Origin: a virus
Taxonomy: Duplodnaviria > Caudoviricetes
Direction: 5' to 3' (one strand)
IMG/VR virus record: IMGVR_UViG_3300010362_000036
Coordinates: 1-44,273 of that record
Length of the DNA: 44,273 nucleotides
The notes beneath the pieces were generated by a model. The model saw only the letters and a list, made by a program, of their open reading frames with translations, had not been told where the DNA came from and ran no database searches. Below are positions 4,471 to 33,371 of this stretch, piece by piece. A program made the translations under genes and the position numbers. The first letter of the stretch is position 1, and every line of letters starts with the position of its first letter.

Positions 4471-6906
4471 TTAGGCTGGCAACCGGGCTTCGATGGCGAG
4501 CACGCGCCGCATCAGTTCCTGCGTGACGGCGATGTGCGCGTGGAAGAGATCTGTGATGCGCACGCCCATGAAGGCGGGGTGTCCCTCGTCGCCAGGGAAG
4601 GCATCATCCACAACGAGAGCGGCGGCGACGGCCTTCACTTGCTGGGCGTAGACACCGATGTGATCAACGTCGTCGGTCTGATCGAGATACCGATAGGAGC
4701 GGATTTCGAGTGCCGCGAGGCGATCCCACCAGTCCATGGCGGCGACGATCGTGCCCGCGTTTTTCAGCCTGGCATCCGAGAGATTGACGTTGTTCGCGGA
4801 GAAGTTCGCGAGGCCACCATTCGAGTCGATGCGGGCCTTCACCCCCGCAGTGTCTTGGCATTGGAGAAATTGCTGCGTGGCGTTGTTCGGCGCGGCAGCC
4901 GTGAACAGAGACCGGATGCCCGTCGGAGCGGCCCCGGTGCATTGGACCGTCAGGGGCCAACTGCCCGTTCCGGTAAAGCTCGAATTGATGGTGGTGACAT
5001 TGTTCGTTGGACTGATACGGAGTGCGTTCAGGGAAGCGCTGCTGTTATAGATCTCGAAAGTATCCGCGCCAATGCCGATATTCAGACCAACTTGCCATTT
5101 CACGGCGCCGCTGGCCGAGTATTGCAGCGCCACAGCCGGGTTGGCGGCGGGTGAGTGCAACAGCAACGCGAGGGCGCCTTGTGCGGACGCTTGCACGAGA
5201 CCGGTGAAGACTTGGAACAATGCAGCGTTGGTGTAGTCCGCAACACGGAGGCAGTAATTGCTGGCACTGCCGCCCGTGATATTCATTCCGTAGCCAGTGG
5301 AATCCGTGTTGGAGCCATCCAAGGCGACATCCGCCGGGATGGTTCCCTGGATGCTGACGCGCTGGTTGAACATCGCGCCGCCGCCCACGCGCAGCTTTCG
5401 GGTGGTACCGGGATCAGTGCCAATCACCACCGTGTTGTCCGGCATAAGGGACAGGAGTGGCGGGGCGAATGTGGTGCCTCCTGCGCCGATAGATCGCGCA
5501 AACTCTAATCCGCCGACGATGGTCTGCTGATACCCGATGCGCCAGTTTACTTGCGTGTTGGAGCCCGTGATGTTGAATGCCAGCGCGGAGTTGGTTGTGG
5601 GGACCTCCTCCCCCAGCGTCAATGTCGATCTCACGGACGCGCTCGGATTGACGCGCAGTGTGGCGGTTCCCCCAGGATCGGGGCCGATCACCGTCGAGCG
5701 CGAGATGAAGATCGGCCCGACCAAGCGGCGTGAGATGAAGATCGGCTGATCGATCGCCGTGCCCGCATCGTTGAACGCTTCGATCACGAAGTCGTTGCCG
5801 AGATCACCGGTGGACTCCGTGTTGCCGCTTTTCCGAATCTTCCAGCGCAACACGTTGTTCATCGTGAACCGAATAGCCTCGCCACCCACGATCGCCGCAT
5901 CGAAGGCGATCGCGCCACCGGAGGGCACCGTGATCAGACTGTTCACACGATTGATCGACAATGCCACGGCGCCGTCAGCGCCACGCGCTATGACCAGATT
6001 GTCCGACGGATCGGCCATGATATAGGCGACGGGATTCGCGCCTCGTACGAAGGCAGCGAGGGCGTTAAATGACCCCCCTGCCGCCGTGTTGACGACGCCG
6101 AGCGCCTGCCCATTGTTTTGGGCGGTCAATTGACCGCCCTGCACGGTCAGCCCAGTCGCAAACGTGTATGTGCCGGGGAACGTTCCGCTGGTGACGTTGT
6201 TCGCCGGAATCGTCGTCAGCGCGCCTGGCGTTTGCCACGTGGGAACACCACCGACGACCGTGAGCACTTGATTCGCCGTACCGATCGGGAGCTTCACCAG
6301 CGTGCTTACCGCGCTCGCATAGAGCAGGTCACCCACCGCATAGAGCGCGATGCCGGTGCCGCCCCACTGCGGGTTGATCACCGTTCCGTTCCACGTCCCG
6401 GTCGCAATCGTCCCGAGCGTCGTGATCGATCCCTGCCCGACATAGGCCGCATCGATATCCACCACGGGCGCCGACGGCGTTCCCGTAATCGCGATGCGAG
6501 CTGGTGTGCCGCTGACCGACACCACGCCACCTGGCGCTGGCGTCTGCCACGCGGGCACGCCACCGACAACGGTGAGCACCTGGCCGGTCGTGCCGACCGC
6601 GCGGCGCGCCAACACATTGGTCGCGCTCGCGTAAATGAGATCGCCGGTCGTATAGGCGGAGAGCCCGGTGCCACCCGATGTCGGGGGGACTGGTGTCGCG
6701 AAGTTCACCGTGCCGCCGACGATCAGATTCCCGCTGACCGTGACATTGCCCGGGATGTTCGACAGCGCCTGCGAAAACGTGATCTTCTTCGTCGTGCCGC
6801 GCGGCGACGCTGAGAGATCGCTAATGTCGACCATGACGAGCAGGTCGCCGACGTCTCCACCTGCGCCAACAAACGCAGGGAGATTCGCAATCGAGACAGT
6901 GGCCAT
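4471..6906 (-). CDS. Long fibre protein with C-terminal intramolecular chaperone (peptidase S74)
   Basis: Gly/Thr-rich. Two internal repeats GD(L/I)xYAS...QVLTVVGGVPxWQTP. C-terminal SDARLK...LEIRSYRY...GVYAQQV and terminal coiled coil. Confidence 0.85.
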   Translation of the reverse strand: MATVSIANLPAFVGAGGDVGDLLVMVDISDLSASPRGTTKKITFSQALSNIPGNVTVSGNLIVGGTVNFATPVPPTSGGTGLSAYTTGDLIYASATNVLARRAVGTTGQVLTVVGGVPAWQTPAPGGVVSVSGTPARIAITGTPSAPVVDIDAAYVGQGSITTLGTIATGTWNGTVINPQWGGTGIALYAVGDLLYASAVSTLVKLPIGTANQVLTVVGGVPTWQTPGALTTIPANNVTSGTFPGTYTFATGLTVQGGQLTAQNNGQALGVVNTAAGGSFNALAAFVRGANPVAYIMADPSDNLVIARGADGAVALSINRVNSLITVPSGGAIAFDAAIVGGEAIRFTMNNVLRWKIRKSGNTESTGDLGNDFVIEAFNDAGTAIDQPIFISRRLVGPIFISRSTVIGPDPGGTATLRVNPSASVRSTLTLGEEVPTTNSALAFNITGSNTQVNWRIGYQQTIVGGLEFARSIGAGGTTFAPPLLSLMPDNTVVIGTDPGTTRKLRVGGGAMFNQRVSIQGTIPADVALDGSNTDSTGYGMNITGGSASNYCLRVADYTNAALFQVFTGLVQASAQGALALLLHSPAANPAVALQYSASGAVKWQVGLNIGIGADTFEIYNSSASLNALRISPTNNVTTINSSFTGTGSWPLTVQCTGAAPTGIRSLFTAAAPNNATQQFLQCQDTAGVKARIDSNGGLANFSANNVNLSDARLKNAGTIVAAMDWWDRLAALEIRSYRYLDQTDDVDHIGVYAQQVKAVAAALVVDDAFPGDEGHPAFMGVRITDLFHAHIAVTQELMRRVLAIEARLPA

Positions 6907-13349: not shown

Positions 13350-13679
13350 TTATTTCGCTCGCCACTCGCGCACGGGAAGTCCGACGGGATTCGTCACCTT
13401 TCTGCCCGTCCATTCGGCGCGCCCGAGATCCACGAGATCTTTCCGCCGCTTCCGCACGCACCGCTGCGGCGGCCAGCCGTAGCGTTCACAGTTCGCGTCG
13501 TAGAAGTTCTGCAGCGCCTCGTCACACGCGGGGCCCAGGAGGCGCATCGCGACCAGGACATGCAAGCAGGCTTCCGAGATTTTTTTGTTGACGTGCGCGG
13601 CGGCGATGTGCGACGTGTCAGGATCGGAGTTTCGGGTGTGCGCTCTCGCATCGAAGAGATCACCCTGCTCGTACATCAC
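13350..13679 (-). CDS. Winged-helix-like DNA-binding protein
   Basis: [13 protein letters not shown]-terminus; [11 protein letters not shown]...W pattern common in phage wHTH proteins. Confidence 0.55.
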
Positions 13680-13867
13680 CGTCGATCGAACGCTCGCCGG
13701 AGACGCCCCAGTCGCTTCGCCTTTACCTCATCCTCGATGCGGGTCCCCTTTTTCGGCGGCCCGGCGGCCACGAATTCCTTGCCGACCGATGACGGGATCC
13801 CAATGCGCGACTCCCCATGCGCCGCCGCTCGCATGGCCCGGTACTGCCGCTGTGAGACCGCAGGCAT
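13676..13867 (-). CDS. Small basic phage protein
   Basis: [18 protein letters not shown]...[11 protein letters not shown]; GAGG-like RBS region; coupled downstream. Confidence 0.6.
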
Positions 13868-13921
13868 CCTATGAGGAAGTACTCATTCGTGGATACGATA
13901 CATCCATACGGCGTATCTGTG

Positions 13922-14167
13922 TCACGTGGCACCTGGCGGTTTCTTCACGATCCGCTGCCACTCGCCGCACCAGTCCGTCTCGTACACACGCGGCCACGCC
14001 ACCTCCGGCACGTCCCCACCGTTGTCCGACGTGAACAACCTCGGCTCCGGCGCTAACCGCCGACACAGCCCCTCGTGCTCGTCATGATCCCCCTCAAAAT
14101 CAAAAAAGCGGCACGAGGCGCACCGTTCTTCCTCCGGGCGCTCGTACCGCTCTGGATTGTCGTCCAC
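13922..14167 (-). CDS. Small Cys-rich protein
   Basis: CASCRFF...GLCRRLAP...WPRV...DWCGEW pattern. Confidence 0.6.
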   Translation of the reverse strand: MDDNPERYERPEEERCASCRFFDFEGDHDEHEGLCRRLAPEPRLFTSDNGGDVPEVAWPRVYETDWCGEWQRIVKKPPGAT

Positions 14168-14176
14168 GCTTCGTTG

Positions 14177-14422
14177 CTAGTTCCGCTGCGTGTCCTTCTG
14201 CCGGAATGAGCCAGGGCCCTTCGCCCGCGTCTTCTTCCCCTTCTCAAACGCCTTGCCCCGCTTCCGCGCCACCCCCCGCCGCATCGCTTCCCGCCGCTCG
14301 TGATCAAGCTTCGCTTGCTCCTTCAACATCGCGCGACGCTCCGCTGCTCCCGCCTCTTGCACCGCCTCGGGCGTGTGAGCTGCCCGTAGCTCCTCCTCCG
14401 CTTCATCGAATCCGTCTCGCAC
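14177..14422 (-). CDS. Hypothetical charged protein
   Basis: Fills the operon gap; basic C-terminus. Confidence 0.45.
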   Translation of the reverse strand: MRDGFDEAEEELRAAHTPEAVQEAGAAERRAMLKEQAKLDHERREAMRRGVARKRGKAFEKGKKTRAKGPGSFRQKDTQRN

Positions 14423-14624
14423 TCAACTCCTCCAGTTTGGTCTCGATCGATTTCACCCGCTGCCCGAACTCCGTCGACATCACCACCTTGTCGAGCCGCG
14501 CCGCAATCGCCCTCTCGATCATCGCCCAAATCTTCTCCCGATACTTCCACGCGATCGCTGCCACCAGCGCGGGCACACTCGCTGTCCCTAGTAAGCTAGC
14601 CAGCCAGTCCCCGATCGCGTGCAT
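14403..14624 (-). CDS. Single-TM protein with coiled coil (lysis accessory candidate)
   Basis: Hydrophobic N-terminus LASLLGTASVPALVAAIAW; TAATG coupling to terS. Confidence 0.55.
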   Translation of the reverse strand: MHAIGDWLASLLGTASVPALVAAIAWKYREKIWAMIERAIAARLDKVVMSTEFGQRVKSIETKLEELSARRIR

Positions 14625-15112
14625 TACTCGATCTCCACCTCAGCCTCCTCGTCGTACACCGGATCCGTCGATCCCGGCAATGCCCCACGCACCGGCTCCA
14701 ACGCGGGCAACACCACCACCCCCACATGATGCCGATGCTCCTGAATCACCCGGTCGCCATACAACTTCGGCGCCACCTTCGAGGTGAACCACTTCAGCGT
14801 ATCCACCCGGAGCCGGTTCCGCTGCACCCCCGCCATGTCCCCCGGCTCAATCGACTCGTTCGATATCCGTATCGCTTCATCCGCCAAACTGTGCGCCTGC
14901 TCCACTCGCGCCTCCCGCCACCGCTCCGCAAACCCCTCATCCCGCTGAATCCATACACTCACCGTCTCCACCGGAATCGATAACGCCGCACACGCCTGCG
15001 TCTTCGTCATCCCCCCTCCCACCAACCGCAGCAACTGCTCCCGATCCCGCTCCGTGTACCCCACTAACCGAAACGGCGACCCCGGCCACGGCCTGTGCGG
15101 CAACCGCTTCAT
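14624..15112 (-). CDS. terS: Terminase small subunit
   Basis: N-terminal HTH, then ARVEQAHSLADEA...NRLRVDTLKWFTSKVAPKLYGD (Sf6/P22-like terS signature). Start MKRLPH at 15112. Confidence 0.9.
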   Translation of the reverse strand: MKRLPHRPWPGSPFRLVGYTERDREQLLRLVGGGMTKTQACAALSIPVETVSVWIQRDEGFAERWREARVEQAHSLADEAIRISNESIEPGDMAGVQRNRLRVDTLKWFTSKVAPKLYGDRVIQEHRHHVGVVVLPALEPVRGALPGSTDPVYDEEAEVEIE

Positions 15113-15375
15113 CGCACCGCCCGCAGTTCCGCCATCCGAGCTCGCTTCCGCTCGTTCCGCCGCTTCGCCTTCGCTACCGCACTCGCCTCCGCCGCCTGCA
15201 ACCGCCGCTGCTCCACCAACGCCAATCCCATCCACCACCGCAGCACGCTCACCGCCAATAACGGCATCAACGACCGATCACGCTCCGCACACCTCCGACA
15301 GAGCCCCCGCGCCCACGGCTCCCGACACTGAACACACTCCTCCACCATACCCCAAATGGTCGTCAATACCCCCAC
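15109..15375 (-). CDS. Hypothetical Zn-finger-like protein
   Basis: CVQC...CRRC; ATGA coupling to terS. Confidence 0.5.
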   Translation of the reverse strand: MGVLTTIWGMVEECVQCREPWARGLCRRCAERDRSLMPLLAVSVLRWWMGLALVEQRRLQAAEASAVAKAKRRNERKRARMAELRAVR

Positions 15376-15542
15376 CCCCTAACAGCTTCCCACCACACCA
15401 CACTTCCGGCCCCCTGTATGCAAATCGCTGATACTCACCCGCGTTTTTTGAGACCAGTGCATACAAACCCACGCTCACGCGCACGAACAACCACCAGCCG
15501 GAATAATGCTCCGGGCTCCCGCGCCGGGCGCCGGGCAAACCA

Positions 15543-15606
15543 CCCACCCCCTCCCCCCCACCCCCTCGATTGTGGGCGCAGCTGACGCGCTCTACCCCCG
15601 GGGGTA
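15543..15606. other. Candidate packaging/terminus signal: G4-type G-run tract and 14-bp palindrome
   Basis: The minus strand reads GGGGG-T-GGGGGGG-A-GGGGG-T-GGG at 15543-15565. Perfect palindrome TACCCCCGGGGGTA at 15593-15606. Upstream of terS where the base skew changes. Confidence 0.45.
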
Positions 15607-15657
15607 TCGATCGCCGACCGGGCTCGACCGCCCGCAGTTATCAGAGATCTCTAACAA

Positions 15658-15677
15658 TGGGGAACAGACTGGGGAAC
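15658..15677 (+). repeat. 20-bp direct repeat TGGGGAACAGACTGGGGAAC, copy 1
   Basis: Exact copy at 30491-30510. Confidence 0.95.
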
Positions 15678-15974
15678 AAACCCGGCAAACATTGCTAAAT
15701 CGTTGCCATGTAAAGACATCCAGCGACATGTAAATGGGTCGCATGCCTTTTGTCGCTAGGCGCTGTGCGCGCGCCATGGTGCACCAATCGCAAACGCGCG
15801 CGTCGAGCTGCGAAAATCCGATTCCGAGCTGTCAAAAATCGATCGCGGAATTGTGCAGAATGCGCGCGAACGGCGACGTGCACGCCAAGGCGTTTCAGCG
15901 CTGAGCGATCGATCCTAGGGGGATTGTGAGCGTCCTAGCGTCGGTTTGGCGGAAGCGAGCGGGCAGGAAATTTC

Positions 15975-16052
15975 GCTTATATAGATGTTGGCACTTGTGA
16001 CCTAATAGGCACCTGGCTAGTCTTATAGGCACATAGGTGCCAATAGCGGCAC
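15975..16052 (+). promoter_or_regulatory. Early promoter/operator region with phased GGCAC repeats
   Basis: GGCAC at 15990, 16008, 16028 and 16048, inverted GTGCC at 16037, next to an AT-rich stretch. Confidence 0.5.
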
Positions 16053-16084
16053 CATTCGACACCTTTCAAAGCGGAGTTTACGCA

Positions 16085-16849
16085 ATGAAGAAAGGCATCA
16101 AGTTGTTGACGAAACCGACAGCACAACCCAAAGCGGAAAAGTCGATGTCGGTTGGGTATGCGACGTTTGTGTTGCATTTCGCGCAGTACGACCTATCAGG
16201 TCGGAACGTCTGCCCTTGGGCAGGTCTGTGCACCTTGGATTGCTTGGGCAAAGAGGGACGGGGCGGAATCAACGCGGGAACGATGGACGACATTCGCGCG
16301 CGCAACACGAACAAGATTCAGTTAGCGCGGTTGCGTCGGACTGATTGGTTTTTCTCGGATCGTCCGGCATTCCTAGTGCGGTTGCGTCGCGAGATTCGGA
16401 ACGCGCGCAAATGGGCCGAAAAACGCGGGTTGCGTTTGGCCATGCGGTTGAACGGCACAAGCGACGTCGTGTGGGAACGGATTGATCCGACATTGTTTGT
16501 GGAGTTTGCCGACGTCGTGTTTTACGACTACACAAAGGCACCATTCATTGTGCGCGACGAGTTACCGGCGAACTACTCGTTGACGTTCTCGTTTGGCGGT
16601 GACAACTGGCACAACTTCGGCGAATCGTTAGCGAACGGTCGGAACGCATCGGTTGTGTTTCGTGTGAAGCGGAATGGTGCCTTGCCGTCGACGTTTGCCG
16701 GGTTGCCGGTGATCGATGGGGATAAGACCGACGCGCGGTTTCTGGATCGGTCTGGCGTGATTGTCGGTCTCCGCGCGAAAGGTCGGTCCATCAAGTCAAC
16801 GAGCAAGTTCATTGTCAGCACCGGCAGAATTTTGCCGGTGCTCGCCTAA
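16085..16849 (+). CDS. GP88-family protein (radical-SAM-like Cys motif)
   Basis: NVCPWAGLCTLDCL, RLNGTSD, FYDYTK, YSLTFS, DGDKTDARF, VGLRAKG. Start MKKG with GGAG RBS. Confidence 0.8.
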   Translation: MKKGIKLLTKPTAQPKAEKSMSVGYATFVLHFAQYDLSGRNVCPWAGLCTLDCLGKEGRGGINAGTMDDIRARNTNKIQLARLRRTDWFFSDRPAFLVRLRREIRNARKWAEKRGLRLAMRLNGTSDVVWERIDPTLFVEFADVVFYDYTKAPFIVRDELPANYSLTFSFGGDNWHNFGESLANGRNASVVFRVKRNGALPSTFAGLPVIDGDKTDARFLDRSGVIVGLRAKGRSIKSTSKFIVSTGRILPVLA

Positions 16850-16876
16850 CGCATCACACACAAGGGAATTCGGGAA

Positions 16877-17212
16877 ATGGTTTACATCCACGATGGAAAG
16901 AACGTGGCGCGCGTCACGGAAGCGGAAGCGACGCGCCTAGTCGACGCCTGGCACGTCGACCCCAAAGCGGTGACCTGGCGTGGACGCCAGTGCTATTTCA
17001 CGGGCAATGTGCTCGTGGCATTGCGGGCGATCGATCCCGACGCGCGGAAGTCGTTTGTCATCACGAGCGCGCGCGAAGACTACTGCCACGAATGCCGTTC
17101 GTGGACCTATCCGTTTACGCTCGACGTCGACTATCGGGAAATCTGCGACGCCTGCTACCCGGACTGGCGCGAAGCGAGAGCGGAAGAGCAAGCGGAACGC
17201 GACGCGCGCTAA
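16877..17212 (+). CDS. Hypothetical protein with C-terminal CxxC pair
   Basis: CHEC...CDAC; RBS present. Confidence 0.55.
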   Translation: MVYIHDGKNVARVTEAEATRLVDAWHVDPKAVTWRGRQCYFTGNVLVALRAIDPDARKSFVITSAREDYCHECRSWTYPFTLDVDYREICDACYPDWREARAEEQAERDAR

Positions 17213-17252
17213 CGACTACACAACACACACACACACCTGGAGTCATCGAAGA

Positions 17253-17774
17253 ATGTCGTACACAACCAACCTGCCCTATCTCTGGCCAAAGCAAACCGCT
17301 GTCGTGATTCGCGGGATCCTCAAACGCGCGTTTCCTGGCGTGAAATTCTCCGTGAAAACCAATCGCGGCGCCGGTGTTTCGTCGGTTGACGTTCGCTGGA
17401 CCGACGGGCCGTTGGCGCGCGACGTGGACGCGCTCGTGAACGTGTTCGTGGCAGGGACCTTTAACGGCATGGTCGACATGTACGAATACGACCGTGACCA
17501 CATCATCACAGTCGACGGCGTGCGCTACCAACCGGGAACGCGCTATGTGTTCACGCGCCGCGAGATTTCCGTGGACCTGGCGCGCTTCGCCGCCGGTGTG
17601 GTCGCGTCGTACTACCGGCGCGAGGCGCCACGCATCAACGACCGTGGCACGTGGTGGGACATCGCCACGTTTGCGCCACCGGCGCCGCTCTCGGACTGGC
17701 ATACGCTCATCCACCGGTACCTGGCCAACCCGGCAGAATTCACGATGACACCGCCGTACGCCGAAGCGATCTGA
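17253..17774 (+). CDS. LPD29-domain protein
   Basis: IRGILKRAFPGVKFSV...SVDVRWTDGP...FNGMVDMYEY. Start MSYTTN with GGAG RBS. Confidence 0.75.
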   Translation: MSYTTNLPYLWPKQTAVVIRGILKRAFPGVKFSVKTNRGAGVSSVDVRWTDGPLARDVDALVNVFVAGTFNGMVDMYEYDRDHIITVDGVRYQPGTRYVFTRREISVDLARFAAGVVASYYRREAPRINDRGTWWDIATFAPPAPLSDWHTLIHRYLANPAEFTMTPPYAEAI

Positions 17775-17848
17775 GGGCGAAACCGGCGCGTCGCCGGTCT
17801 GCTGGTATCTGCCAGCACTGATGAGCCCATACACGAGGTTGTAGAGCG

Positions 17849-18043
17849 ATGGCGATCGATCCCAAGGCGACCTGTGGACACGATTGTGCCTGTCCGAACG
17901 TGGTCTACCATGCGGCGCAGGAATGCGTCGCGCGGTACGATGCGCCGATCCCCTCGCCGTCGGCGTTTGAGTTAGTCAGCATTCTGCTGGACGCGCTCGC
18001 CGAGTACGACGAGAGCGAACCCGAATCCCAGGAGGCGGCCTAA
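17849..18043 (+). CDS. Hypothetical protein
   Basis: GAGG RBS; coupled to the next gene. Confidence 0.5.
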   Translation: MAIDPKATCGHDCACPNVVYHAAQECVARYDAPIPSPSAFELVSILLDALAEYDESEPESQEAA

Positions 18044-18264
18044 TGCCGCAACAGATCGCAATCAGCTGGACCTACACCGATGCCGACGTGGCGAACATTC
18101 GCGAGGCATGGGACGACCACGAGAAACCCGCTGCGGACCTCGTGCGCGAGTACATCATCCACACGGTCGATAACGCGCTCATGGCGTTGAACGATCGCTA
18201 TCACAACACCGATCTGTCGTCCGACGATCGGCCCACCGCAGAGGAGCACCCGAAGAATGCGTAA
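18043..18264 (+). CDS. Hypothetical protein
   Basis: TAATG coupling, AGGAGG RBS. Confidence 0.55.
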   Translation: MPQQIAISWTYTDADVANIREAWDDHEKPAADLVREYIIHTVDNALMALNDRYHNTDLSSDDRPTAEEHPKNA

Positions 18265-18538
18265 ACGCTCAACCACCAACCCTGTCGTGCGCGCCGTCCA
18301 GAACATGGGCGGCAGTCCGCTGGGCCCCAAGTCAATGTGTCGCTGTGGCCACACCGGCGACGGGCCGAACAGCGAGCACGCAAACGCCATCGCGCTTGGT
18401 CACGGCGCGTGCACGCAATGCAATTGCGTCCAGTTCACCTGGCAGTCGCGCATCGTGCGCGCGGAAGACCTCTGCCCACAGTGCCACGAGCGCCCGGCGC
18501 AGTATCACGGTTGGTGCGACACGTGCCGGAGCGCCTGA
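18257..18538 (+). CDS. Cys/His-rich hypothetical protein
   Basis: CRCGH...H...CTQCNC...CPQC...CDTC. Confidence 0.55.
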   Translation: MRKRSTTNPVVRAVQNMGGSPLGPKSMCRCGHTGDGPNSEHANAIALGHGACTQCNCVQFTWQSRIVRAEDLCPQCHERPAQYHGWCDTCRSA

Positions 18539-18540
18539 GC

Positions 18541-18804
18541 ATGTTCCCCACCATCAACGGATGGGTGCGGACGATCGCGCCCATTGAACGCGTTCCGATC
18601 TACGACCACCAGGACCCGATCGACCTGGAGGGAACCATTCCCGCCGGTGTCGTGGGCGTCGTGATCGATCAGTCAGACGACTTCGTGACGATCGCATTCA
18701 CCTGGGGCGGAGGCGAGGCGCCACGCATGGCGGTGGCCACGCTGCCGACCGACGACGCGCTCCGGCAAACACTCACCGCCTGGCAGGAGGGCGACCCATC
18801 GTGA
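18541..18804 (+). CDS. Hypothetical protein
   Basis: MFPTING start; beta-rich. Confidence 0.5.
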   Translation: MFPTINGWVRTIAPIERVPIYDHQDPIDLEGTIPAGVVGVVIDQSDDFVTIAFTWGGGEAPRMAVATLPTDDALRQTLTAWQEGDPS

Positions 18805-19079
18805 AACGCGAAGACATCAAACCAGGCGCGCGGGTGGAAGCGACGCGCGACCTGGCCGGGCGATACAAGAAAGGCACGCAGGGCACGATTGTCTCGCTGC
18901 TGCACGGACGCGCCTACGGCAATGGCGGATGGGAAATGGTCGACGTCATGTTTGACGGCGACGAAATGCCCTATCGCGTCGCAATCGAGCACGCCGAGTT
19001 CCAGTTTCGGCTCGTCGGCGGCATCGCCGCCCAACGCGAGGACATCCGCCGACGGCGCCGGGAAGCGGGCGATGAGTAA
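18801..19079 (+). CDS. SH3-like barrel hypothetical protein
   Basis: IKPGARVEA...GTQGTIV...VDVMFD pattern; GTGA coupling. Confidence 0.5.
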   Translation: MKREDIKPGARVEATRDLAGRYKKGTQGTIVSLLHGRAYGNGGWEMVDVMFDGDEMPYRVAIEHAEFQFRLVGGIAAQREDIRRRRREAGDE

Positions 19080-19401
19080 ACACACACACCTCGCGCCAGA
19101 CAAACACACGCACGGCGGCGTGCAAGACGTCAAGCTGGTGCAGGACGCGCTCGACGCCACGCGCCTCACCGTGCCCCTCCTCGCGCGGCTCATCGTCCGC
19201 GAAGCGCGCAACGTCCAGGGCTGGCTCGACGGCATCCACCCGGTGCCCGGGCCCGTCCGGCTTCGCCTGTTGGAACTGATGGCGACCGATCCCGAAGAAC
19301 GGTATTACGAAATGCAGATGTTCCTCGCGCGCGTCGCGCGCTTCCCTCGCCGCGAACGCAACCACAATACCCGCCGCACCCGCCAACCCAAAGGAGCCTA
19401 G
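19072..19401 (+). CDS. HTH-like hypothetical protein
   Basis: LARLIVREARNVQGWLDG...PVPGPV resembles a phage HTH. Confidence 0.45.
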   Translation: MSKHTHLAPDKHTHGGVQDVKLVQDALDATRLTVPLLARLIVREARNVQGWLDGIHPVPGPVRLRLLELMATDPEERYYEMQMFLARVARFPRRERNHNTRRTRQPKGA

Positions 19402-19403
19402 CA

Positions 19404-19646
19404 GTGCCTCTCAGCAAGAAGGACATCACCACCCCGGTCACCGTGACCCAGACGTTCACATTCGCCGTGGCCGATCTGCGCAACATGTTCGATGAGTTCA
19501 CGGACGGCGGCCTGCCCATCGGCGACGACGTGCAAAGCGTCGAAGATCTCGCGCGGTTCACCGTCGACAGCGCCGTCGAAAACTCGCTCGACAACCTCAA
19601 CGACACCTGGGGCAACCCGGACCTGCCGACGGAGGACGACGCATGA
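19404..19646 (+). CDS. Acidic hypothetical protein
   Basis: AAGGAG RBS; strongly Asp/Glu-rich. Confidence 0.55.
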   Translation: MPLSKKDITTPVTVTQTFTFAVADLRNMFDEFTDGGLPIGDDVQSVEDLARFTVDSAVENSLDNLNDTWGNPDLPTEDDA

Positions 19647-20056
19647 GCAACACGTGGCGCGCACTCCTCATCAGAGACGGCGAGATCTCGCCGGTCGATC
19701 TCCGTCACGGCATCGATCACCTGAACGAATTGATTGGCGACACCTTCTGCTCGGCGTTCGTCGTCTGGCAAGAGAACGACCGGAAGCTCATTGGCTACTG
19801 CGATGACAACGGCCTCGCCAAGAACCTGCGCACGAACGTGATGCTCTCGGAGGATCTCTATTCGATCCCCGGCTATCCGATCGTGGGACCGATCGTCGTG
19901 TGCGCGCACGCCGGGCCCGACACCGTCGACATGACGGACGCGGAGCGCTCAGCCTTCTACACGGTCGACATTCCTACGGTCGCCACCGGCAAACATCCCG
20001 ACCGGGGCCGCACGATCACGCCAATCCTGCGCTATCGCGGGCCCCGCGCGCCGTAA
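19643..20056 (+). CDS. DUF3846-like protein
   Basis: LNELIG...YCDDNGLAKNLRTN...PIVGPIVV pattern. Confidence 0.6.
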   Translation: MSNTWRALLIRDGEISPVDLRHGIDHLNELIGDTFCSAFVVWQENDRKLIGYCDDNGLAKNLRTNVMLSEDLYSIPGYPIVGPIVVCAHAGPDTVDMTDAERSAFYTVDIPTVATGKHPDRGRTITPILRYRGPRAP

Positions 20057-20434
20057 CTACGCGCGACGCTCGACACACACGGCACCCTGGCCATCGCTGG
20101 GGTGCCGTTGTGCTTTCGCCAGTTCGCGCTCGAGTGTCTGTAAACGCTCATACAACGTCCGCGCCTGCAGTTGCGTGATCCAGAACCGCACCCGATCGAT
20201 CGGACGCAGCTCATCCGCCGCGAGCTGCGACTCACTCAGCTTCACCGCAATCGCCTGCACGTGGACAATCACGCGGTCACGACTGATGCCAAGTGCATGG
20301 CCCAGCTGCGCATAGCTCAATCCCTCGCCGATGAGCATTGTGACACGCAACTCCGTGCGCGTGAGCGGACGAATCAACCGACGCGAGAGCTCGCTGGGTG
20401 CGGGCAGAGGAATCTTGGGACCTGTGAGCATCAT
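20057..20434 (-). CDS. LuxR/GerE-type HTH regulator
   Basis: LTRTELRVTMLIGEGLSYAQLGHALGISRDRVIVHVQAIAVKL; GGAGG RBS. Confidence 0.75.
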   Translation of the reverse strand: MMLTGPKIPLPAPSELSRRLIRPLTRTELRVTMLIGEGLSYAQLGHALGISRDRVIVHVQAIAVKLSESQLAADELRPIDRVRFWITQLQARTLYERLQTLERELAKAQRHPSDGQGAVCVERRA

Positions 20435-20562
20435 TCGCCTCCTTGCGCATAAGTCTCGCCACCGTCAGATATTACGCTAGACCGTCCTGGCGAACAATCG
20501 CGGACGCGCGAGGAAGCGCGCAACAGGGCGGCCTCACCTTTCCGATCAGCAGGAGTCGTTTC

Positions 20563-26839: not shown

Positions 26840-27170
26840 CACCGTGGTTGAGAGTTTTTTCTCACTACCTGCCTGACTCCCGGCATTCCCGTCACAGAGG
26901 GGTCACCGCTGGGTGTGGCCACCAGTCCCTGCCTCACATCGCGCGTCCGTCGTTCACCGCCCCTTCCGCAACCGGGGAGTCGATTGGAGCTCACCGGTAT
27001 GGCGCCCTCAGTTTTGGTGTCTGCGACGTGCAGTGCCCTACCACAGCGAGGGGATGTGACGGACCAGGTCGTAGCCGTTGCCGTTGCCTGGATTTGTTTG
27101 ATGCGCCCCTCGATGCTTCCTCCCGTTGTTCGTGAGCGTGGCGCGACTTCAGGCTCACCCGGTGACGGTG
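26840..27170 (-). ncRNA. Candidate structured non-coding RNA
   Basis: ~350-nt gap in a tightly coupled operon with at least 5 local hairpins and 4 long-range complementary pairs. Strand inferred from the flanking genes. Confidence 0.45.
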
Positions 27171-27710
27171 TCAGAAACCGGGATCGGTCTCACTGAGCGA
27201 CATCGCCCATTCCCAGCTTTGCTCACTTTCGTCTTCGATCCGTCTCGCGTGCGCATGGCCGTCCAGGCCCACCCGCACGTGCAACTCCTCATCATCGTTT
27301 TCTAGGACCGGCATCGCGGCGGTGCCGTACGACCAGAGGCGACGCCGATGCGGCGCGTCCTCCGGCGGCTCAAAGAGGCGGCGCGTTTTCTCCGCCCAGA
27401 ACAGATCGCGCGCTTCCTCGGCGAGCTGCTCGCGCGTCTTGGCACGACGTGGTGGCGGCGGTGGCGGAGGTGGGGCCTGCCGCCGCCGGGCCTCCCGCAC
27501 GCGCTCCTCTTCTCGCCAGGTGCGCTCGCGCTCCGCCCAGAATGCCTTCTGTCGCGCCGCCTCTGCCGCTGCCTGGCGTTGCTCTTCCTCTTCGAGGGCG
27601 ATCCACACCGGGTGATGGGGATCGCTCGGCATGCCGCACACGAGGCAGAGCAGACCGCCGCCGAAGATGTGGTGGTAGTGGCCCATGCAGGGCCGAAGCG
27701 TGTCACTCAT
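27171..27710 (-). CDS. Hypothetical protein (Zn-finger N-terminus, charged helix, poly-Pro)
   Basis: C..HYHH...CLVC; overlaps the upstream gene. Confidence 0.55.
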   Translation of the reverse strand: MSDTLRPCMGHYHHIFGGGLLCLVCGMPSDPHHPVWIALEEEEQRQAAAEAARQKAFWAERERTWREEERVREARRRQAPPPPPPPPRRAKTREQLAEEARDLFWAEKTRRLFEPPEDAPHRRRLWSYGTAAMPVLENDDEELHVRVGLDGHAHARRIEDESEQSWEWAMSLSETDPGF

Positions 27711-27924
27711 CGCGCACTGCCTGCAGTTGTTGATTCTTCGTCAGGTGCGCGAGCCGCAGTTCGTTGAGGATGAAGTCGCACTGCGCTTCGGCGCTCGCGA
27801 GTTTGATCGCCATCTCGCGCGCGAGCCGGGAGAGCTCGTAGATGTTCTGATCGCGGATCGCTTGATCGACCAGCGCACCGTAGGACTCCGGCGCGACATA
27901 GCGCTTGATCGTTCCGACAATCAT
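27703..27924 (-). CDS. Hypothetical protein
   Basis: MIVGTIK start with ATGA coupling. Confidence 0.5.
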   Translation of the reverse strand: MIVGTIKRYVAPESYGALVDQAIRDQNIYELSRLAREMAIKLASAEAQCDFILNELRLAHLTKNQQLQAVRDE

Positions 27925-28112
27925 TTGGGGAACCGCTGCTTGAGGATTTCCTGAATCCTCGGGTCGTCGCCGTTGACGCCCTCGGGGAAATAGCCGTCGC
28001 GCGCGAGGCGCGACCAGAAGGACGGCGGATCGTCTTCCTTCAGCGTTTCGATGTATTCGTCGGTGAGCGTGGCCCACACGTCATCGATGGACTGGCGGCG
28101 CGGATTCGTCAT
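27921..28112 (-). CDS. Hypothetical protein
   Basis: MTNPRRQ start with ATGA coupling. Confidence 0.5.
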   Translation of the reverse strand: MTNPRRQSIDDVWATLTDEYIETLKEDDPPSFWSRLARDGYFPEGVNGDDPRIQEILKQRFPK

Positions 28113-28564
28113 GAGAGTTCCAGCATCAACTGCCACCGGTGTTTGTCTTCCGTGGGATGCGTGTCGATGCGCGGTCGCGATTCACAGTCCCAGCTGCGAC
28201 CCTTCACGCGCGCCTCGGGAGACAGGCCGAGCGCGCGCAAACTCGAGCCGCTCTCGCGCGCCAGCGTGTACGTGATCAGCGAGGTATAGCCCATCGTCTG
28301 ACACACCCGCCGCGCGGCAGCGTAGAGAAACGAGCAAGCGTTCTTGGTGCCATCGGTCGCGAGGCGCGTCACCTCGGCGTGCGTACGCGCGTGGGCGCCA
28401 CGCGCAACCGTGCGTCCGACGACAATCACGCCGACGAGCGTGTCGCCCTGCATCGCGCCGAGACAGAACCGACAGCCGCGCGTCGTCCCGTGATGCCGAT
28501 GCTCCTCGCCGATGAAGCGATTCGCTTCGCGGAGCGTGACCGGGACGAGCACGAGGCGACTCAT
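28109..28564 (-). CDS. XF1762-family, Mom-like GNAT-fold protein
   Basis: LREANRFI.EEHRHH...GVIVVGR.VAR...EVTRLATDGTKNACSFLY...MGY..LITYTL..ESGSSLRA. Confidence 0.8.
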   Translation of the reverse strand: MSRLVLVPVTLREANRFIGEEHRHHGTTRGCRFCLGAMQGDTLVGVIVVGRTVARGAHARTHAEVTRLATDGTKNACSFLYAAARRVCQTMGYTSLITYTLARESGSSLRALGLSPEARVKGRSWDCESRPRIDTHPTEDKHRWQLMLELS

Positions 28565-29298
28565 CCCACGAGATCCATGTTGAACTGCGTCCCGAACGTC
28601 CGTGTCCAACGCGGCGCGCTCGCGTGGCGCTCGATGCGATCGATGAGCACCAGGCCACCCATCGTGCCCGTGAGGTGATACATCTGCCGCTCGCGGACGT
28701 GGTTCTGTGCGACGTTGCTCGAATCAGCGGAGCTAAACGGCAACTGCGAGAAGACTGTCGGGTTGAGCATGCGCAGGCCGTGGAGCTTGCACGGCGGGCG
28801 CCCCTCGGCGTCGCAGATGTGATCCATCGCCGCGCCCATGCGCTCCCACCAGCCCGGCGTGCCGATCTCCGCCCACTGGCCTGAACTGCCGAAGGCGACA
28901 CGCGGATATTCGCGACAGAGGCGCCCGAGCCGCTCTAGCGATTCGTGCAGATGCCACACCGGCACGTTCGTCAGGAGCTTGCCGCCCAGCTTCCCCCACG
29001 TCGCGAGCGCGAGCTCATTGGCCGCTTCATCGCCATCGATGACGTCGGGCAGGATGCACCAGTCGAAGCCCGGGTGCCGTTCCCACTGCTGCACGAAGTC
29101 GAGGTAGGCGTGGATGTCGAACGTCGCGCCGCGCTGCCACACCGAGTACGCGCCGTTATCGATCGCGAAGGTCTGACACACCTCGGCGGCGAGCGCGACC
29201 TGATCAGGGCGCTCGAAGGACACGAACGCATGACGGCGCGTCCACACGTCGACCGCCACCGAGAGCGGCGTGATGGGGCCCCCGTGATAGTGAATCAC
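28561..29298 (-). CDS. DpdA/TGT-like TIM-barrel base-exchange protein
   Basis: FAIDNGAYS, ILPDVIDG, VPVWH, VAFGSS, KLHGL and FSSADS match TGT-fold motifs (DSG-like, PD, PVxH, HxxG, SxDS). Confidence 0.7.
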   Translation of the reverse strand: MIHYHGGPITPLSVAVDVWTRRHAFVSFERPDQVALAAEVCQTFAIDNGAYSVWQRGATFDIHAYLDFVQQWERHPGFDWCILPDVIDGDEAANELALATWGKLGGKLLTNVPVWHLHESLERLGRLCREYPRVAFGSSGQWAEIGTPGWWERMGAAMDHICDAEGRPPCKLHGLRMLNPTVFSQLPFSSADSSNVAQNHVRERQMYHLTGTMGGLVLIDRIERHASAPRWTRTFGTQFNMDLVG

Positions 29299-29675
29299 TT
29301 CGGCCCCACCATGATCGGGTCCGGCATCGGCAGCTCAAGCTTCTGCGGACGCCAGAGATGCAGGCAGTAGTCATGCGCGTTGACGTAGGACGCGCGCGGT
29401 GGGTGGTACTGCACCACGCACTCGTCGGGGCCGAAGAACACGCCCTTGATGAACGACATCTCTTCCCAGCTGGGCGTGCGATATACGGGGCGCAGATTGT
29501 GTCGATCGATCGGCACCACCGACACATGGTCCCAGTCCAAGCCGTCCGCTGCGATGACCTGCAGCACGGCGTGCCGGTAGGGAATGCGGAACGCGCCGAC
29601 GTTGCCGTAGGAATCGTCCGACGCGAGGCGCCCGTCGCGCACCCGATACTTGTTCAGTTCCGGGTTGTCACGCAT
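29295..29675 (-). CDS. Conserved phage protein (HVS...PxWEEM...YVNxH..CLHLWRP family)
   Basis: Motifs WDHVSV, PSWEEMSFIK and YVNAHDYCLHLWRP. Confidence 0.7.
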   Translation of the reverse strand: MRDNPELNKYRVRDGRLASDDSYGNVGAFRIPYRHAVLQVIAADGLDWDHVSVVPIDRHNLRPVYRTPSWEEMSFIKGVFFGPDECVVQYHPPRASYVNAHDYCLHLWRPQKLELPMPDPIMVGPK

Positions 29676-30012
29676 CGCCCGTCTCCTCGGCCACAACCCG
29701 CACCCGACTACGCCGAGCGAGATCCGGCGAGTGCCGCTCGCGGAACTCCGCCTTCGTGCACCAGTCGCGATAGGCGCGGTCCCAGATCTTGCCCTTGGGC
29801 GGCAGTTCGTAGTTGGTGACATCCAACCACGCATTCGGGTCGACCGCCGCGAGCCGCACGCGCACGATCGTTCGTGCCTTGTTGACCCAGATCGCGGTCA
29901 CGCGAATTGGCTGGAACTCCACCGGCAGCGCCTTCGCGATCTCTGGCGTCTTCGCGTGGTGCGCGACGACGTAATCGCCCTCTCGGAGATCGAGCGCGTC
30001 GTCGAGGGTCAT
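29668..30012 (-). CDS. Hypothetical protein
   Basis: ATGA coupling; SH3-like start. Confidence 0.55.
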   Translation of the reverse strand: MTLDDALDLREGDYVVAHHAKTPEIAKALPVEFQPIRVTAIWVNKARTIVRVRLAAVDPNAWLDVTNYELPPKGKIWDRAYRDWCTKAEFRERHSPDLARRSRVRVVAEETGDA

Positions 30013-30407
30013 GATGCCACCCCCGAGCGTTTGATCGATTGGAGGTGGAAGCCCGCTCGAATGGCGAGGCGTCTCGCGGCGCGCACGCTGAAGCCGCAGA
30101 CACCAGCGGCGATATCGAGCGAGGCGCCCTCAGAGAGGAGCTTGAAAAAGAGGCGGCGCCGGGCGAGGACCGCTGGGGAATAGACTGGGGAATGTTCCCC
30201 GACCGGGGTGCCACCCTCGACGCGGAGGTGCGACGTCGAGGGGGCGGTGCCCTGTCCTTCTAACGCAAGTTCGTACTGGGAGTTACGCTCTGCACTCGCA
30301 GCGAATTGCTGCGCCCATTGTTTGAGAGTACTGATCGCGCTGACAATGGGTGTGAAACACATTTGGCCCACCTGGCGCAACTGCTGACCCCACAACGATT
30401 TCGGCAT
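30009..30407 (-). CDS. Protein with C-terminal HTH, overlapping the attP-like region
   Basis: LLSEGASLDIAAGVCGFSVRAARRL. The only in-frame ATGs are at 30407 and 30362. Confidence 0.45.
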   Translation of the reverse strand: MPKSLWGQQLRQVGQMCFTPIVSAISTLKQWAQQFAASAERNSQYELALEGQGTAPSTSHLRVEGGTPVGEHSPVYSPAVLARRRLFFKLLSEGASLDIAAGVCGFSVRAARRLAIRAGFHLQSIKRSGVAS

Positions 30408-30437
30408 CTAACACCCCGTCTGGTAACAAGTTAGCCA

Positions 30438-30481
30438 TGTCGGATGCTGTCGGTTCCTGTCGGTTCTTGTCGGTTCCTGTC
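30438..30481 (+). repeat. Four tandem 10-bp TGTCGG(T/A)Tnn repeats
   Basis: TGTCGGATGC TGTCGGTTCC TGTCGGTTCT TGTCGGTTCC TGTC. Confidence 0.9.
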
Positions 30482-30490
30482 ACATGCATT

Positions 30491-30510
30491 TGGGGAACAG
30501 ACTGGGGAAC
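30491..30510 (+). repeat. 20-bp direct repeat TGGGGAACAGACTGGGGAAC, copy 2
   Basis: Exact copy at 15658-15677; variant at 30174-30192. Confidence 0.95.
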
Positions 30511-30553
30511 GCCGAAACGGGTCGGAGGCCAAACTGGGGAACGGCAACCCCCG

Positions 30554-31954
30554 CTAGATGGCCTTCAGCTTCGGGAGCCCTGGGTCCTCCGCCATCAGCA
30601 CGCCCTCGCCCTGATACTGCCGTGCCTTCACGTACTTGTTGAACGTCACGCGCGAGCCATCGCGATGGCCCGCCTGCTGCTGCGCGGCCCGCAGACCGCC
30701 CTCGGTGTCCAGCACCCCGCTCTCCGCCTCCTGCGTCAGGTACGAGTGCCGACCCAGATGCATCGCGTGCCCCTTCTTCCGCTTGTGCCAGAGCCCCGCG
30801 TCCTTGAGCGCCTGGTCCCACGCGCGGATGTAGTGCATGTATGACTTCGGGGCGAACGCATCATCCCAGCGCAGCGACCGCAGGTAGGGCTCGATGTACA
30901 GATCCCACGCCCAGTCGCGCTTGACCTCGCACCACCGGTTGCGCGGCGACGTGCCCTTCCGCTTGGCCGTGAGCGACGCCTTCGGGCCGCGCGCGAAGAA
31001 CCACCGCGTGAACCGGTGCGTCTTCGGGTCGACCTTGAAATCCTTCTTGAAGAGCACCGGATCCTTGAGCTTCTTGCCGTCCGGTCCCGTCACGCTGCCG
31101 GTGTGGCGAATGGCGCTGAACTCGACGCACGCCGCGTGAATGAGCGCGAACACCGCGCGCTCGGCGGGCCCCTTGCCCTTGCTCACATGGCGCATCTGCT
31201 CTTCCTCGGTGAGCGCATCGCCCGCCACGAGGTCGTTCGCCTGGGCGTACATCACGTCGGGGTCGAGCGTCTTGATCGTCACCGTGAGCACGATGTTCGT
31301 GCTGAGGAGCTTCTTGCCGATGAGGAACTCTGCGAACGTCGAGAGCCCGCCGCGATGATTCCGGCGCGTGCCGAAGGAGCAGCCCTCCTCGGGCAGCAAC
31401 TCGTTCAAGTGCCTGCGCAGGTTCTCGACCGTGAAGTCATGCGTCGTCTTCGCGCCGGTCGTCTTGATGAAGCGCGCGAGCATGCGCTTGTTGAGGAGGC
31501 GCGTGTGGTACGCGGGACTCGACTCCGGCGCCGAGCCATCCCATTCCTCGGCGAGCTGGGCGAGCGGGCGCGCGTCGCGTGTGTTGAGCACGTGCTGCAA
31601 TCGGTCGTCCCACGAGGCGTTCTTCGTGTGGCCCGGGTTCATCGGATCCGGCACCTTCTCGCACTCCGCCATCTTCGCCTCGAAGCGTTCGACCGTCATC
31701 GTCTTCGTCACGAACATCTCGGCAAGCAAGCCGCGCACATCGCGCGTCGGATGCGCAACGAGCGCGAACAGCTTTTCGAGTTCCAGCAAGCGGCGCGTGC
31801 CCAGCTTGGTCTTCTTCTCTTCGGCAGCGGTACAGCCGAGCCGCCCGAACATGCGATTGCCATTGTCGCTGACGAGCCCGATCGATGCGCCCTCGGCGAC
31901 GGTGAACACGACGTACAGACTGCCTGCTGCGCCTTTCGGTGATGAGAGTTTCAC
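30554..31954 (-). CDS. int: Tyrosine recombinase/integrase with atypical box I
   Basis: Core-binding region (T..N.R..LS.F..FL), HLGRHS (HxxR), AGH and FNKY (Tyr). GTG start at 31954 with GGGGGAG RBS. Confidence 0.8.
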   Translation of the reverse strand: MKLSSPKGAAGSLYVVFTVAEGASIGLVSDNGNRMFGRLGCTAAEEKKTKLGTRRLLELEKLFALVAHPTRDVRGLLAEMFVTKTMTVERFEAKMAECEKVPDPMNPGHTKNASWDDRLQHVLNTRDARPLAQLAEEWDGSAPESSPAYHTRLLNKRMLARFIKTTGAKTTHDFTVENLRRHLNELLPEEGCSFGTRRNHRGGLSTFAEFLIGKKLLSTNIVLTVTIKTLDPDVMYAQANDLVAGDALTEEEQMRHVSKGKGPAERAVFALIHAACVEFSAIRHTGSVTGPDGKKLKDPVLFKKDFKVDPKTHRFTRWFFARGPKASLTAKRKGTSPRNRWCEVKRDWAWDLYIEPYLRSLRWDDAFAPKSYMHYIRAWDQALKDAGLWHKRKKGHAMHLGRHSYLTQEAESGVLDTEGGLRAAQQQAGHRDGSRVTFNKYVKARQYQGEGVLMAEDPGLPKLKAI

Positions 31955-31981
31955 GATAGATCTCCCCCTGGTTGAATAAAC

Positions 31982-32024
31982 GGACGAGCTAAGATCCAGT
32001 AAATGAACTACTTGGAACTCGTCC
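31982..32024 (-). promoter_or_regulatory. Long imperfect hairpin between xis and int
   Basis: Nested pairs GGACGAG/CTCGTCC, TCCA/TGGA and GTA/TAC. Confidence 0.45.
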
Positions 32025-32036
32025 TGACAAGGGGTT

Positions 32037-32312
32037 TCAGTCAGCCGCGCCCGCGCCTCCAGCGAGCAGGTCATCAAGCTCATTCAGGTCATAGCGATAG
32101 GCGCCTTTGTCCCCGTGCCGGAGGTGCCCGGCTACGCGGACCAGGGTGGAGCGGTGCATGTGGCAGTAGTCTGCCGCCTCCGCCGTGGTCGCCCAGCGCC
32201 GGGGCCGCTCAGGATGTGGCCGCTGACCCAGCGCGGTCACGTTCGGGTCAAGCACGAATATCTGCGCCTTCTTGGCGCGGCTCTTAGAACGGAAGGTCGC
32301 TTTGGTCTTCAT
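32037..32312 (-). CDS. xis: Excisionase-like HTH protein
   Basis: WATTAEAADYCHMHRSTL...YRYDLNELDDLL, immediately upstream of int. Confidence 0.65.
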   Translation of the reverse strand: MKTKATFRSKSRAKKAQIFVLDPNVTALGQRPHPERPRRWATTAEAADYCHMHRSTLVRVAGHLRHGDKGAYRYDLNELDDLLAGGAGAAD

Positions 32313-33099
32313 CGTTCAACGCCGGTGGATAGTCACTGAAGTCCGGCTCCGCCGCCGTCGGCAGCGCCGTCCGTGCTGGTTTCTTCGTCGCGGTCGTCCC
32401 GAGCGATTGATCCATCAACACGGTCGCGATGTCCTCCGCCAAGTCGGCGAACTTTTTCACGCGCGCGGGATCCTTCGGGTCGCGACACCACTTGAGTAAT
32501 TTCTTAAGTTCGTCTGCCGTGCGGTCGCCGATGCGCACGCCCTTGAAATCGCCGAACGGCATCGGGTGGTCCGCTGGCGTGCCGGTCCAGCCGTGCCGCT
32601 GCGTCGCGGCGCTGGCCTTCTTACCAGGCGACGGCGAGGGCGGCGCGCCGTACGGGTCATCGAAGGCCGCGTTCACCTGGTCGCGCACCGACGCGGCCTT
32701 GGGCGGCACCGCCGCGTTCCCATCATCGTCATCGTCGCACACGATGCAAAGGAGGCCCGCCGTCGAATACCGCCGACCGTAGGTCAACGCCGCTCCCGCG
32801 CCCTGCGCATCCCGTTTCGCGAGCGGGATGTAGACCGTGCTCGTCATCGATTCCCCGGTCTTGTAGATGAGACGCGCCCGCACGAAGAGCGCACTCCCGT
32901 CCTCGCTCGGCTCCGCGTCCTGCGTGAGCGCGCAGTCGTGATCCGCGCACGTCCCGCGCACCGTGTCGTAGATCGCATCCAGGCTCGCGTACTTCCGATT
33001 GCCGAATTGCGAATTCTTTGAATCCTTGATGACCGGACGCAGGGCCTTCTGGAGCGCGATGAACGCCGCTGCGAATTCGGGACTCACGATGAGATTCAT
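32284..33099 (-). CDS. erf: ERF-family ssDNA annealing protein
   Basis: KNSQF...KYASLDAI and AQGAGAALTYGRRY; C-terminal MPFG.FKG module and DLPF tail. Confidence 0.9.
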   Translation of the reverse strand: MNLIVSPEFAAAFIALQKALRPVIKDSKNSQFGNRKYASLDAIYDTVRGTCADHDCALTQDAEPSEDGSALFVRARLIYKTGESMTSTVYIPLAKRDAQGAGAALTYGRRYSTAGLLCIVCDDDDDGNAAVPPKAASVRDQVNAAFDDPYGAPPSPSPGKKASAATQRHGWTGTPADHPMPFGDFKGVRIGDRTADELKKLLKWCRDPKDPARVKKFADLAEDIATVLMDQSLGTTATKKPARTALPTAAEPDFSDYPPALNDEDQSDLPF

Positions 33100-33371
33100 C
33101 GTGCACCTCCGCGTTCGGTTCGGCTGGCCTGCTCGCGCTCCAGGCGCGCGCCCAGAAGCGCGATCGTATCGCGCCCATGACCGAACCAGGTGGATATGAG
33201 TTTTTCGATTTCGAGCTCGACGCGCTCGCTCGTTAGCCCCGCCAGGACGTGGTAAACGTGAGATTTATTATGCCCATGACTGGCCGCCCAGTTGCCGATC
33301 GATTCATGACCGGAGAGCAGAATCGCGCAGCGAAAGAGAATCCCGCGCTGTTGCTTCGTGATGCCCTGCAT
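33096..33371 (-). CDS. Cro-like HTH protein
   Basis: SIGNWAASHGHNKSHVYHVLAG..SER; first gene of the operon. Confidence 0.55.
   Translation of the reverse strand: MQGITKQQRGILFRCAILLSGHESIGNWAASHGHNKSHVYHVLAGLTSERVELEIEKLISTWFGHGRDTIALLGARLEREQASRTERGGAR

Follow-up and report, generated by a model that had tools for sequence, protein, structure and literature searches.

Arm-type sites, as known from the heterobivalent tyrosine integrase of phage lambda, are usually placed only in att, and phage integrases are treated as recombination enzymes. In the soil phage studied here, represented by a 44,273-bp sequence without end repeats that we refer to as the window, an exact copy of an arm-type repeat from the phage's own attP lies ~14.8 kb away from it, where the late and early operons diverge. 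The question raised by this locus is what such an element might do beside the terminase genes: recombine, regulate, or nothing at all.

The remote pair and its surroundings

The remote element (15658-15677, minus strand) consists of two 8-bp units with a 12-bp period and shares its strand with the attP pairs, int and the late genes. It had been described as an exact copy of the attP repeat at 30491-30510, and the two are indeed identical over all 20 bp. This 20-mer is the longest exact direct repeat anywhere in the window; in dinucleotide shuffles an exact repeat of at least 20 bp arose in 0/200, and a length of 18 bp was reached in 21/200. With up to four mismatches allowed, the sole further copy in the window is 30174-30193, which matches the remote pair at 18/20 positions. 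All three pairs share one spacer, which suggests that the spacer belongs to the motif. An assembly artefact, the possibility that would have explained the copy away, is made unlikely by contigs of the separately assembled run X1, which cover 13500-20450 and 26947-33400 and span both sites with 0 differences at an even depth of ~10; X1 is perhaps the window's own source, so this agreement argues against misassembly and does not count as a second sample. Next to the pair is a box (15689-15708, minus strand) that matches attP 30421-30440 at 16/20 positions in inverted orientation and that we take, like the boxes in attP, to be IHF-like by the consensus. Box-like sequences of this kind also occur in the junction regions of two relatives, G001 and G002, with a weaker one in L052.

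Leftward from ~15.1 kb run the genes for the small and large terminase subunits, a P22-type portal and tail proteins. The first well-annotated late gene is that of the Sf6-type terminase small subunit (terS; 14624-15112, minus strand), whose likely start is separated from the remote pair by 546 bp. Rightward from 16.1 kb are GP88, LPD29 and DUF3846 genes, and the GP88-family gene (16085-16849, plus strand), first of this early-type operon, has its likely start 408 bp from the pair, which itself lies within the non-coding gap between terS and the first rightward gene. Gene content and layout suggest that the rightward genes are early and that the genome end coincides with the junction. The motif GGGTG(G/C)TTT (15537-15545, minus strand), found on the late strand in 6/6 junction regions examined, is a candidate packaging or genome-end signal. 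A sigma-70 promoter consensus was not found in 14900-16300, and no repressor gene was recognised at the early/late junction; a weak HTH_3 protein is encoded within the early operon.

Several other features of the window were recorded. The late strand is G-rich at 14400-15600 (GC skew -0.34 to -0.57), and the sharp end of this G-richness at 15.6 kb is adjoined by a 14-bp palindrome at 15593. A 10-bp palindrome, AGAGATCTCT, occurs three times in the window (15643, 24098 and 33575), the copy at 33575 being upstream of the small HTH-ERF-xis-int genes, and is possibly an operator. A 15-19-bp repeat marks the starts of three tail-region genes (40914, 41648 and 42088-42090), and a queuine tRNA-ribosyltransferase-like gene (28561-29298; phrog_887, E 9e-66) is a DNA modification candidate. 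There is no tRNA gene in the window. A CRISPR-repeat reading of the repeats was dropped because the window is without an array, as was a hairpin-telomere reading because it holds no long palindrome.

The attP region and the integrase

Leftward toward 30.55 kb, the window phage carries genes for an ERF single-strand annealing protein (32284-33099, minus strand, upstream of xis-int), an HTH_17 protein that is a candidate excisionase (32037-32312, minus strand, directly upstream of int; E 1e-5, just under the curated cut-off), and a divergent 466-aa tyrosine integrase, P0002 (30554-31954, minus strand). Behind int follow, in order, a single arm unit (30533-30542) and the int-proximal arm pair (30491-30510), both on the minus strand within 30491-30542; 10-bp tandem repeats that are candidate excisionase sites (30448-30481, plus strand); two IHF-like boxes (30393-30434, plus strand), labelled by the same consensus; a 37-bp imperfect dyad with perfect 8-bp ends (30314-30350), which we read as a putative 15-7-15 core; and, 120 bp on, the second arm pair, distal to int (30174-30193, minus strand). 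The 10-bp repeats lie at 30448, 30458 and 30468, recur once at 28466 and are missing at 15.6 kb. The pair at 30174-30193, the single unit, the 10-bp repeats and the stretch shared by 15689-15708 and 30421-30440 are additions to the preliminary description.

In having a dyad core that is flanked by arm pairs and located behind int, 30174-30542 fits a lambda-type attP, in which the IHF and excisionase labels are putative. The claim that the repeat is of arm type is borne out by position, since pairs flank the dyad core at 120 and 140 bp behind a tyrosine integrase gene, and it is further supported by a like layout at host-genome att sites of related integrases. In motif and period, the remote pair agrees with the phage's own att arms. 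Co-oriented arm-type pairs have been described in attP of the mycobacteriophages of Cluster K, L5 and Giles (PMC3203893). The window phage resembles these and the doubled motif of HE-PICI (PMC3203893, PMC10111431) in that co-oriented tandem pairs lie on both sides of the core, 80-140 bp off, directly behind the integrase gene; unlike the descriptions given in the cited portions of those papers, where pairs occur only within attP, it has an extra pair at the early/late junction, at a distance of 14.8 kb from att. Nothing convincing was found for attB, as the core pattern at 2 mismatches occurred in 5/401 genomes as scattered unrelated matches.

P0002 is without a Pfam match at E 1e-3. Compared with PF00589 clusters, it scores 0.98 by language-model features and TM 0.55 by structure, and a model built from six sequences (pLDDT 73.5) has as its best solved Foldseek matches XerA, Tn1549 Int and lambda Int (E 2e-5 to 1e-3). 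The predicted structure has the core-binding and catalytic fold of a tyrosine recombinase. H399, R402, H430 and Y441 (His II, Arg II, His III and Tyr) are invariant in 6/6 homologues; the expected Arg I is Glu278, likewise Glu in 6/6, with the Arg I position set by motif and not by structural superposition. Arg I is 91.2% conserved across the tyrosine recombinase family, and in Cre a His can stand in for it, according to one study (PMC2943603, Table 1 for the conservation). Given Glu at this position, the conserved residues make P0002 likely, not certain, to be catalytically active. In the family of P0004, the integrase of relative G002, the position is G in 18, H in 11, N in 2 and S in 1 (n=32), and members are still found at tRNA att sites. 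Neither the P0002 group (with P0003 and P0126-P0129) nor the P0004 group has Arg I by motif, and both escape Pfam PF00589. P0002 is thus a member of a small integrase subfamily with Glu replacing the first catalytic Arg.

A 44% homologue of P0002 is P0003, and one homologue comes from a Krumholzibacteria genome. P0002-type integrase loci were found in none of the viral contigs, annotated phages or 5 genomes, and a prophage carrying a P0002-type Int in none of the viral contigs or genomes searched. A scan of 68 ORFs of the window found no second recombinase. The host is probably a member of the Gemmatimonadota, because 8/9 genome loci of the P0004 family carry that label and distant capsid homologues occur in 5/401 genomes of the phylum.

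The pair in related phages

A terL search led to two close viral records, and a capsid scan of viral contigs returned G001 and G002 only. G002 is the closest relative with both regions (terL 69%, capsid 79%) and likewise has its early and late genes back to back. Its integrase shows no significant sequence match to P0002 (best E 3.1), and its attP has a tRNA-Asn-type core with arm units GTCCCCC behind int at 31539, 31551 and 31740; ARAGORN finds a whole tRNA-Asn inside this attP (31625-31696). In the early/late gap of G002 lies a remote pair (2255-2273) that shares its strand with int and the late genes and agrees at 14/14 unit positions. The first early ORF is 392 bp past it, as compared with 408 bp in the window phage, and an IHF-like box shared with the attP of G002 is 38 bp away. 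With up to 1 mismatch allowed, 0.01 such pairs would be expected by chance in 17.4 kb, and 3/200 shuffles gave one; the pair was first spotted in the gap and afterwards found behind int. Its units are kept and its spacer is changed, as expected of a protein-binding site. The IHF-like box is on opposite sides of the pair in the two phages. The distance from GGGTG(G/C)TTT to the pair is ~110 bp in the window phage and ~220 bp in G002, whereas the distance to the early gene is kept, which slightly favours an early promoter as the target.

Co-variation of both copies in relatives had been proposed as a check, and in G002 the remote copy does follow the integrase, with another integrase and another arm motif. 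The remote pair is present in 2/2 phages with both regions, one being the window. A motif-blind scan of 29 records for recurring tandem pairs recovered the window phage and G002; it also returned low-complexity or unrelated recurrences in G004, G007, G721, G723, G727 and G733, and an attL/attR pair in G079 that was to be expected. The arm motifs of the two phages are alike (TTCCCCA vs GTCCCCC), so a shared third protein is a possible binder.

Four close relatives are known from the junction only, without the int region. In two of these, L057 and L048, the junction has neither an IHF-like box nor a pair; in the other two, G001 and L052, a 12-bp-period pair of another motif (unit CCAACCA in G001, CCTCTGT in L052), with no att site to match it to, lies ~20 bp from the IHF-like box, but since such pairs occur in 4-9% of 150-bp segments anyway, these are leads only. 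At 4559-4572, the junction of L057 also contains 14 bp identical to the left edge of the attP core of the window phage (30308-30321), the best of 12 cross-comparisons. The remote pair was found in 0/7 more distant integrase-bearing phages with definable arms (G004, G005, G007, G079, G726, G727 and G737), two of which are complete genomes with related capsids; G004, G727 and G079 are complete and their early genes are not back to back with terS, and the other four are partial or unmapped. Left out of this count were G006 (att region as in G005), G008 (as in G004), G729 (integrase present, arms undefined), G010:C26 (truncated int), and those terL-related records in which no integrase was detected (PF00589 matched in 4/23, and atypical integrases can be missed this way). 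Stray matches with 3 mismatches (G005 16098; G727 13247 and 15245; G002 26551, 28378 and 31417) and one with 2 mismatches (G002 1267) were taken as background. The exact motif had 2 matches in viral contigs; each falls within the terminase coding sequence of an unrelated AT-rich phage, and both were rejected as chance. Of eight host-genome loci of the P0004 family viewed together with their flanks, six (L026-L031) have such a pair between int and a tRNA, and this supports taking the pairs for arms; in L024 a related pair is accompanied by a partial tRNA, and L025 has none. Among these records, G079:C1:2130768-2173578 is a complete 42.8-kb prophage located at a tRNA-Leu, with an att core of 59 bp and related capsid and portal proteins, and G010:C26:28879-29442 encodes a truncated integrase of the P0004 family within a phage contig of 41.5 kb.

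Possible roles of the remote pair

The preliminary description had also reported a core-like sequence overlapping the remote pair, and the match of 15640-15661 to the reverse complement of 30314-30335 at 18/22 positions is present. This half core look-alike (minus strand) contains the 10-bp palindrome at 15643, from which part of the match could derive, and it overlaps the arm pair by 4 bp, so that 4 of the 22 aligned positions are the first four bases of that pair. It is the best of 729 tiles compared with the 37-bp core, by a modest margin (score 12 vs 10.5). Relative to the attP core, it agrees at 13/15 positions of the left half-site, 5/7 of the spacer and 3/15 of the right half-site, and the remote site thus does not show a matching spacer between a pair of inverted core-type half-sites. 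The best core-side match at the G002 remote site is 13/15 with a score of 10, and cross-controls score up to 14. The fusion of arm-type and core-type motifs that had been noted at the locus is seen in the window phage but is particular to it; across phages the common feature is an arm pair adjoining an IHF-like box.

These data bear directly on whether the site recombines. Int might invert or excise the 14.7-kb segment, as one of three options put forward earlier had it, or might circularise the genome after injection by joining two terminally redundant copies of the site, in the way that Cre-loxP does for P1. The look-alike is inverted relative to attP and located at the inferred genome end, a self-by-self reaction would have matching spacers, and the active site is atypical in having Glu for Arg I. 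Nevertheless, we regard such a role as the least probable of those considered: only half a core is present, the arm overlaps it where spacing would be expected, G002 has no core above controls, and the phage already has ERF for circularisation. Junction contigs linking the two sites were found in none of 156 contigs of one run, contigs being prone to drop rare variants. A low-depth joint from 30247 to 14214 (23 letters between, depth 2.6) touches neither site and was discarded. Alternatively, the remote site could be a functionless attP fragment in which a core end was joined to an arm pair over a 4-bp overlap by an old duplication or illegitimate event. The window copy is exact, spacer included, and abuts core-like sequence, and the pair is missing from 2/4 other close junctions and from the 7 distant phages. 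We hold a relic to be quite unlikely all the same, since the spacer is common to all three window pairs, hence part of the motif, and G002 has its own motif with a changed spacer in the same place, which would call for two separate accidents.

Known systems offer several models for a regulatory role. The integrase IntS of KplE1 uses its att sites to repress a promoter (PMC2951348); in this it resembles our proposal, being a working integrase that represses through arm- and core-type sites, but the promoter described there is its own and overlaps attL, while the window site, a copy on its own at lytic genes, is distant from both att and int. The excisionases 186 Apl and D29 Gp36 regulate distant promoters (PMC7498355, PMC12266134), and Apl, Gp36 and P2 Cox are recombination proteins whose direct-repeat targets are located at att as well as at early promoters far from it, which is similar to the arrangement here. 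Unlike in those cases, the shared motif of the window phage is an arm-type pair and not the 10-bp Xis-like repeat, and the helix-turn-phased Xis repeats that att and promoter share in Cox/Apl-type operators are not found at the remote site. In SPbeta, MrpR has a tyrosine-recombinase fold and serves as master prophage repressor, its recombinase activity having been lost (PMC10516654). MrpR and phi3T SroF, in which such a fold acts as a prophage repressor on a repeated element, represent a similar idea; MrpR differs, as it is inactive, has many operators and leaves excision to a separate serine recombinase, whereas P0002 retains His-Arg-His-Tyr and has an attP-like site beside xis and one remote pair. 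Precedents thus exist for integrases that regulate themselves, for excisionases with regulatory roles and for a repressor that is a dead recombinase, while searches of the main texts in an open-access library gave no paper in which a phage's early/packaging junction holds a copy of the arm pair of its own integrase.

That an excisionase or another small helix-turn-helix protein binds the pairs and regulates the early promoter, as Apl, Cox and D29 Gp36 do, therefore has strong precedent (PMC7498355, PMC12266134), the window phage encodes two HTH_17 genes, and the cited part of the HE-PICI paper leaves the binder of doubled motifs open (PMC10111431). We nonetheless think it decidedly unlikely, because pairs are found 120-140 bp to either side of the core, which is how arm-type pairs are placed (PMC3203893), and because the separate 10-bp repeats are better Xis candidates; their absence from the remote site points to Int rather than Xis. 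Int itself could also act as a tether, a bivalent molecule bridging the remote arm pair and the att core in a loop, so that packaging or early transcription would be licensed only after integration or excision. An arm pair, an IHF-like box and a half core make up the toolkit of an intasome arm, and the co-variation in G002 fits a loop equally well. With sites 14.8 kb apart in the window phage and at least 4.7 kb apart round the circle in G002, spacing is not conserved, and we consider a loop unlikely.

The remote element is real and non-random, and it is most likely a second docking site with a regulatory role. Regulation of early/late promoters or of packaging by Int was among the options originally listed and fits best, and inversion or excision of the intervening segment finds no support. 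The poor fit to recombination, together with a shared arm pair and IHF-like box at a fixed distance from the early genes, leads us to prefer non-catalytic docking; comparative sequence evidence gives about an even chance that the remote pair, adjoined by an IHF-like box, serves as a docking site from which Int damps the early promoter and/or the start of packaging. The N-terminal domain of Int would bind the remote pair and IHF would bend the DNA there, with the half core perhaps offering Int a second anchor in the window phage. If the early promoter and genome end do lie at the junction, Int bound there would, as long as its levels are high, repress early transcription and/or keep packaging from starting. 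Int would thereby favour commitment to lysogeny, or postpone packaging until excision is complete. A bolder form of this proposal, which we advance tentatively and consider doubtful, is that the integrase is a lifestyle and packaging switch, its arm pair being rebuilt at the early/terminase junction after each swap of the integration module and standing in for a CI repressor. Int and IHF would then silence the first lytic promoter or gate the terminase, possibly via looping to att, and packaging would be tied to the integration state.

The remote pair provides a simple sequence test that could be run on any temperate phage, and gives binding and reporter assays a short, defined DNA to work with. 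If docking is confirmed, an arm pair that follows its integrase through a module swap would imply a direct role for Int in the lysis-lysogeny decision or in the timing of packaging after excision.
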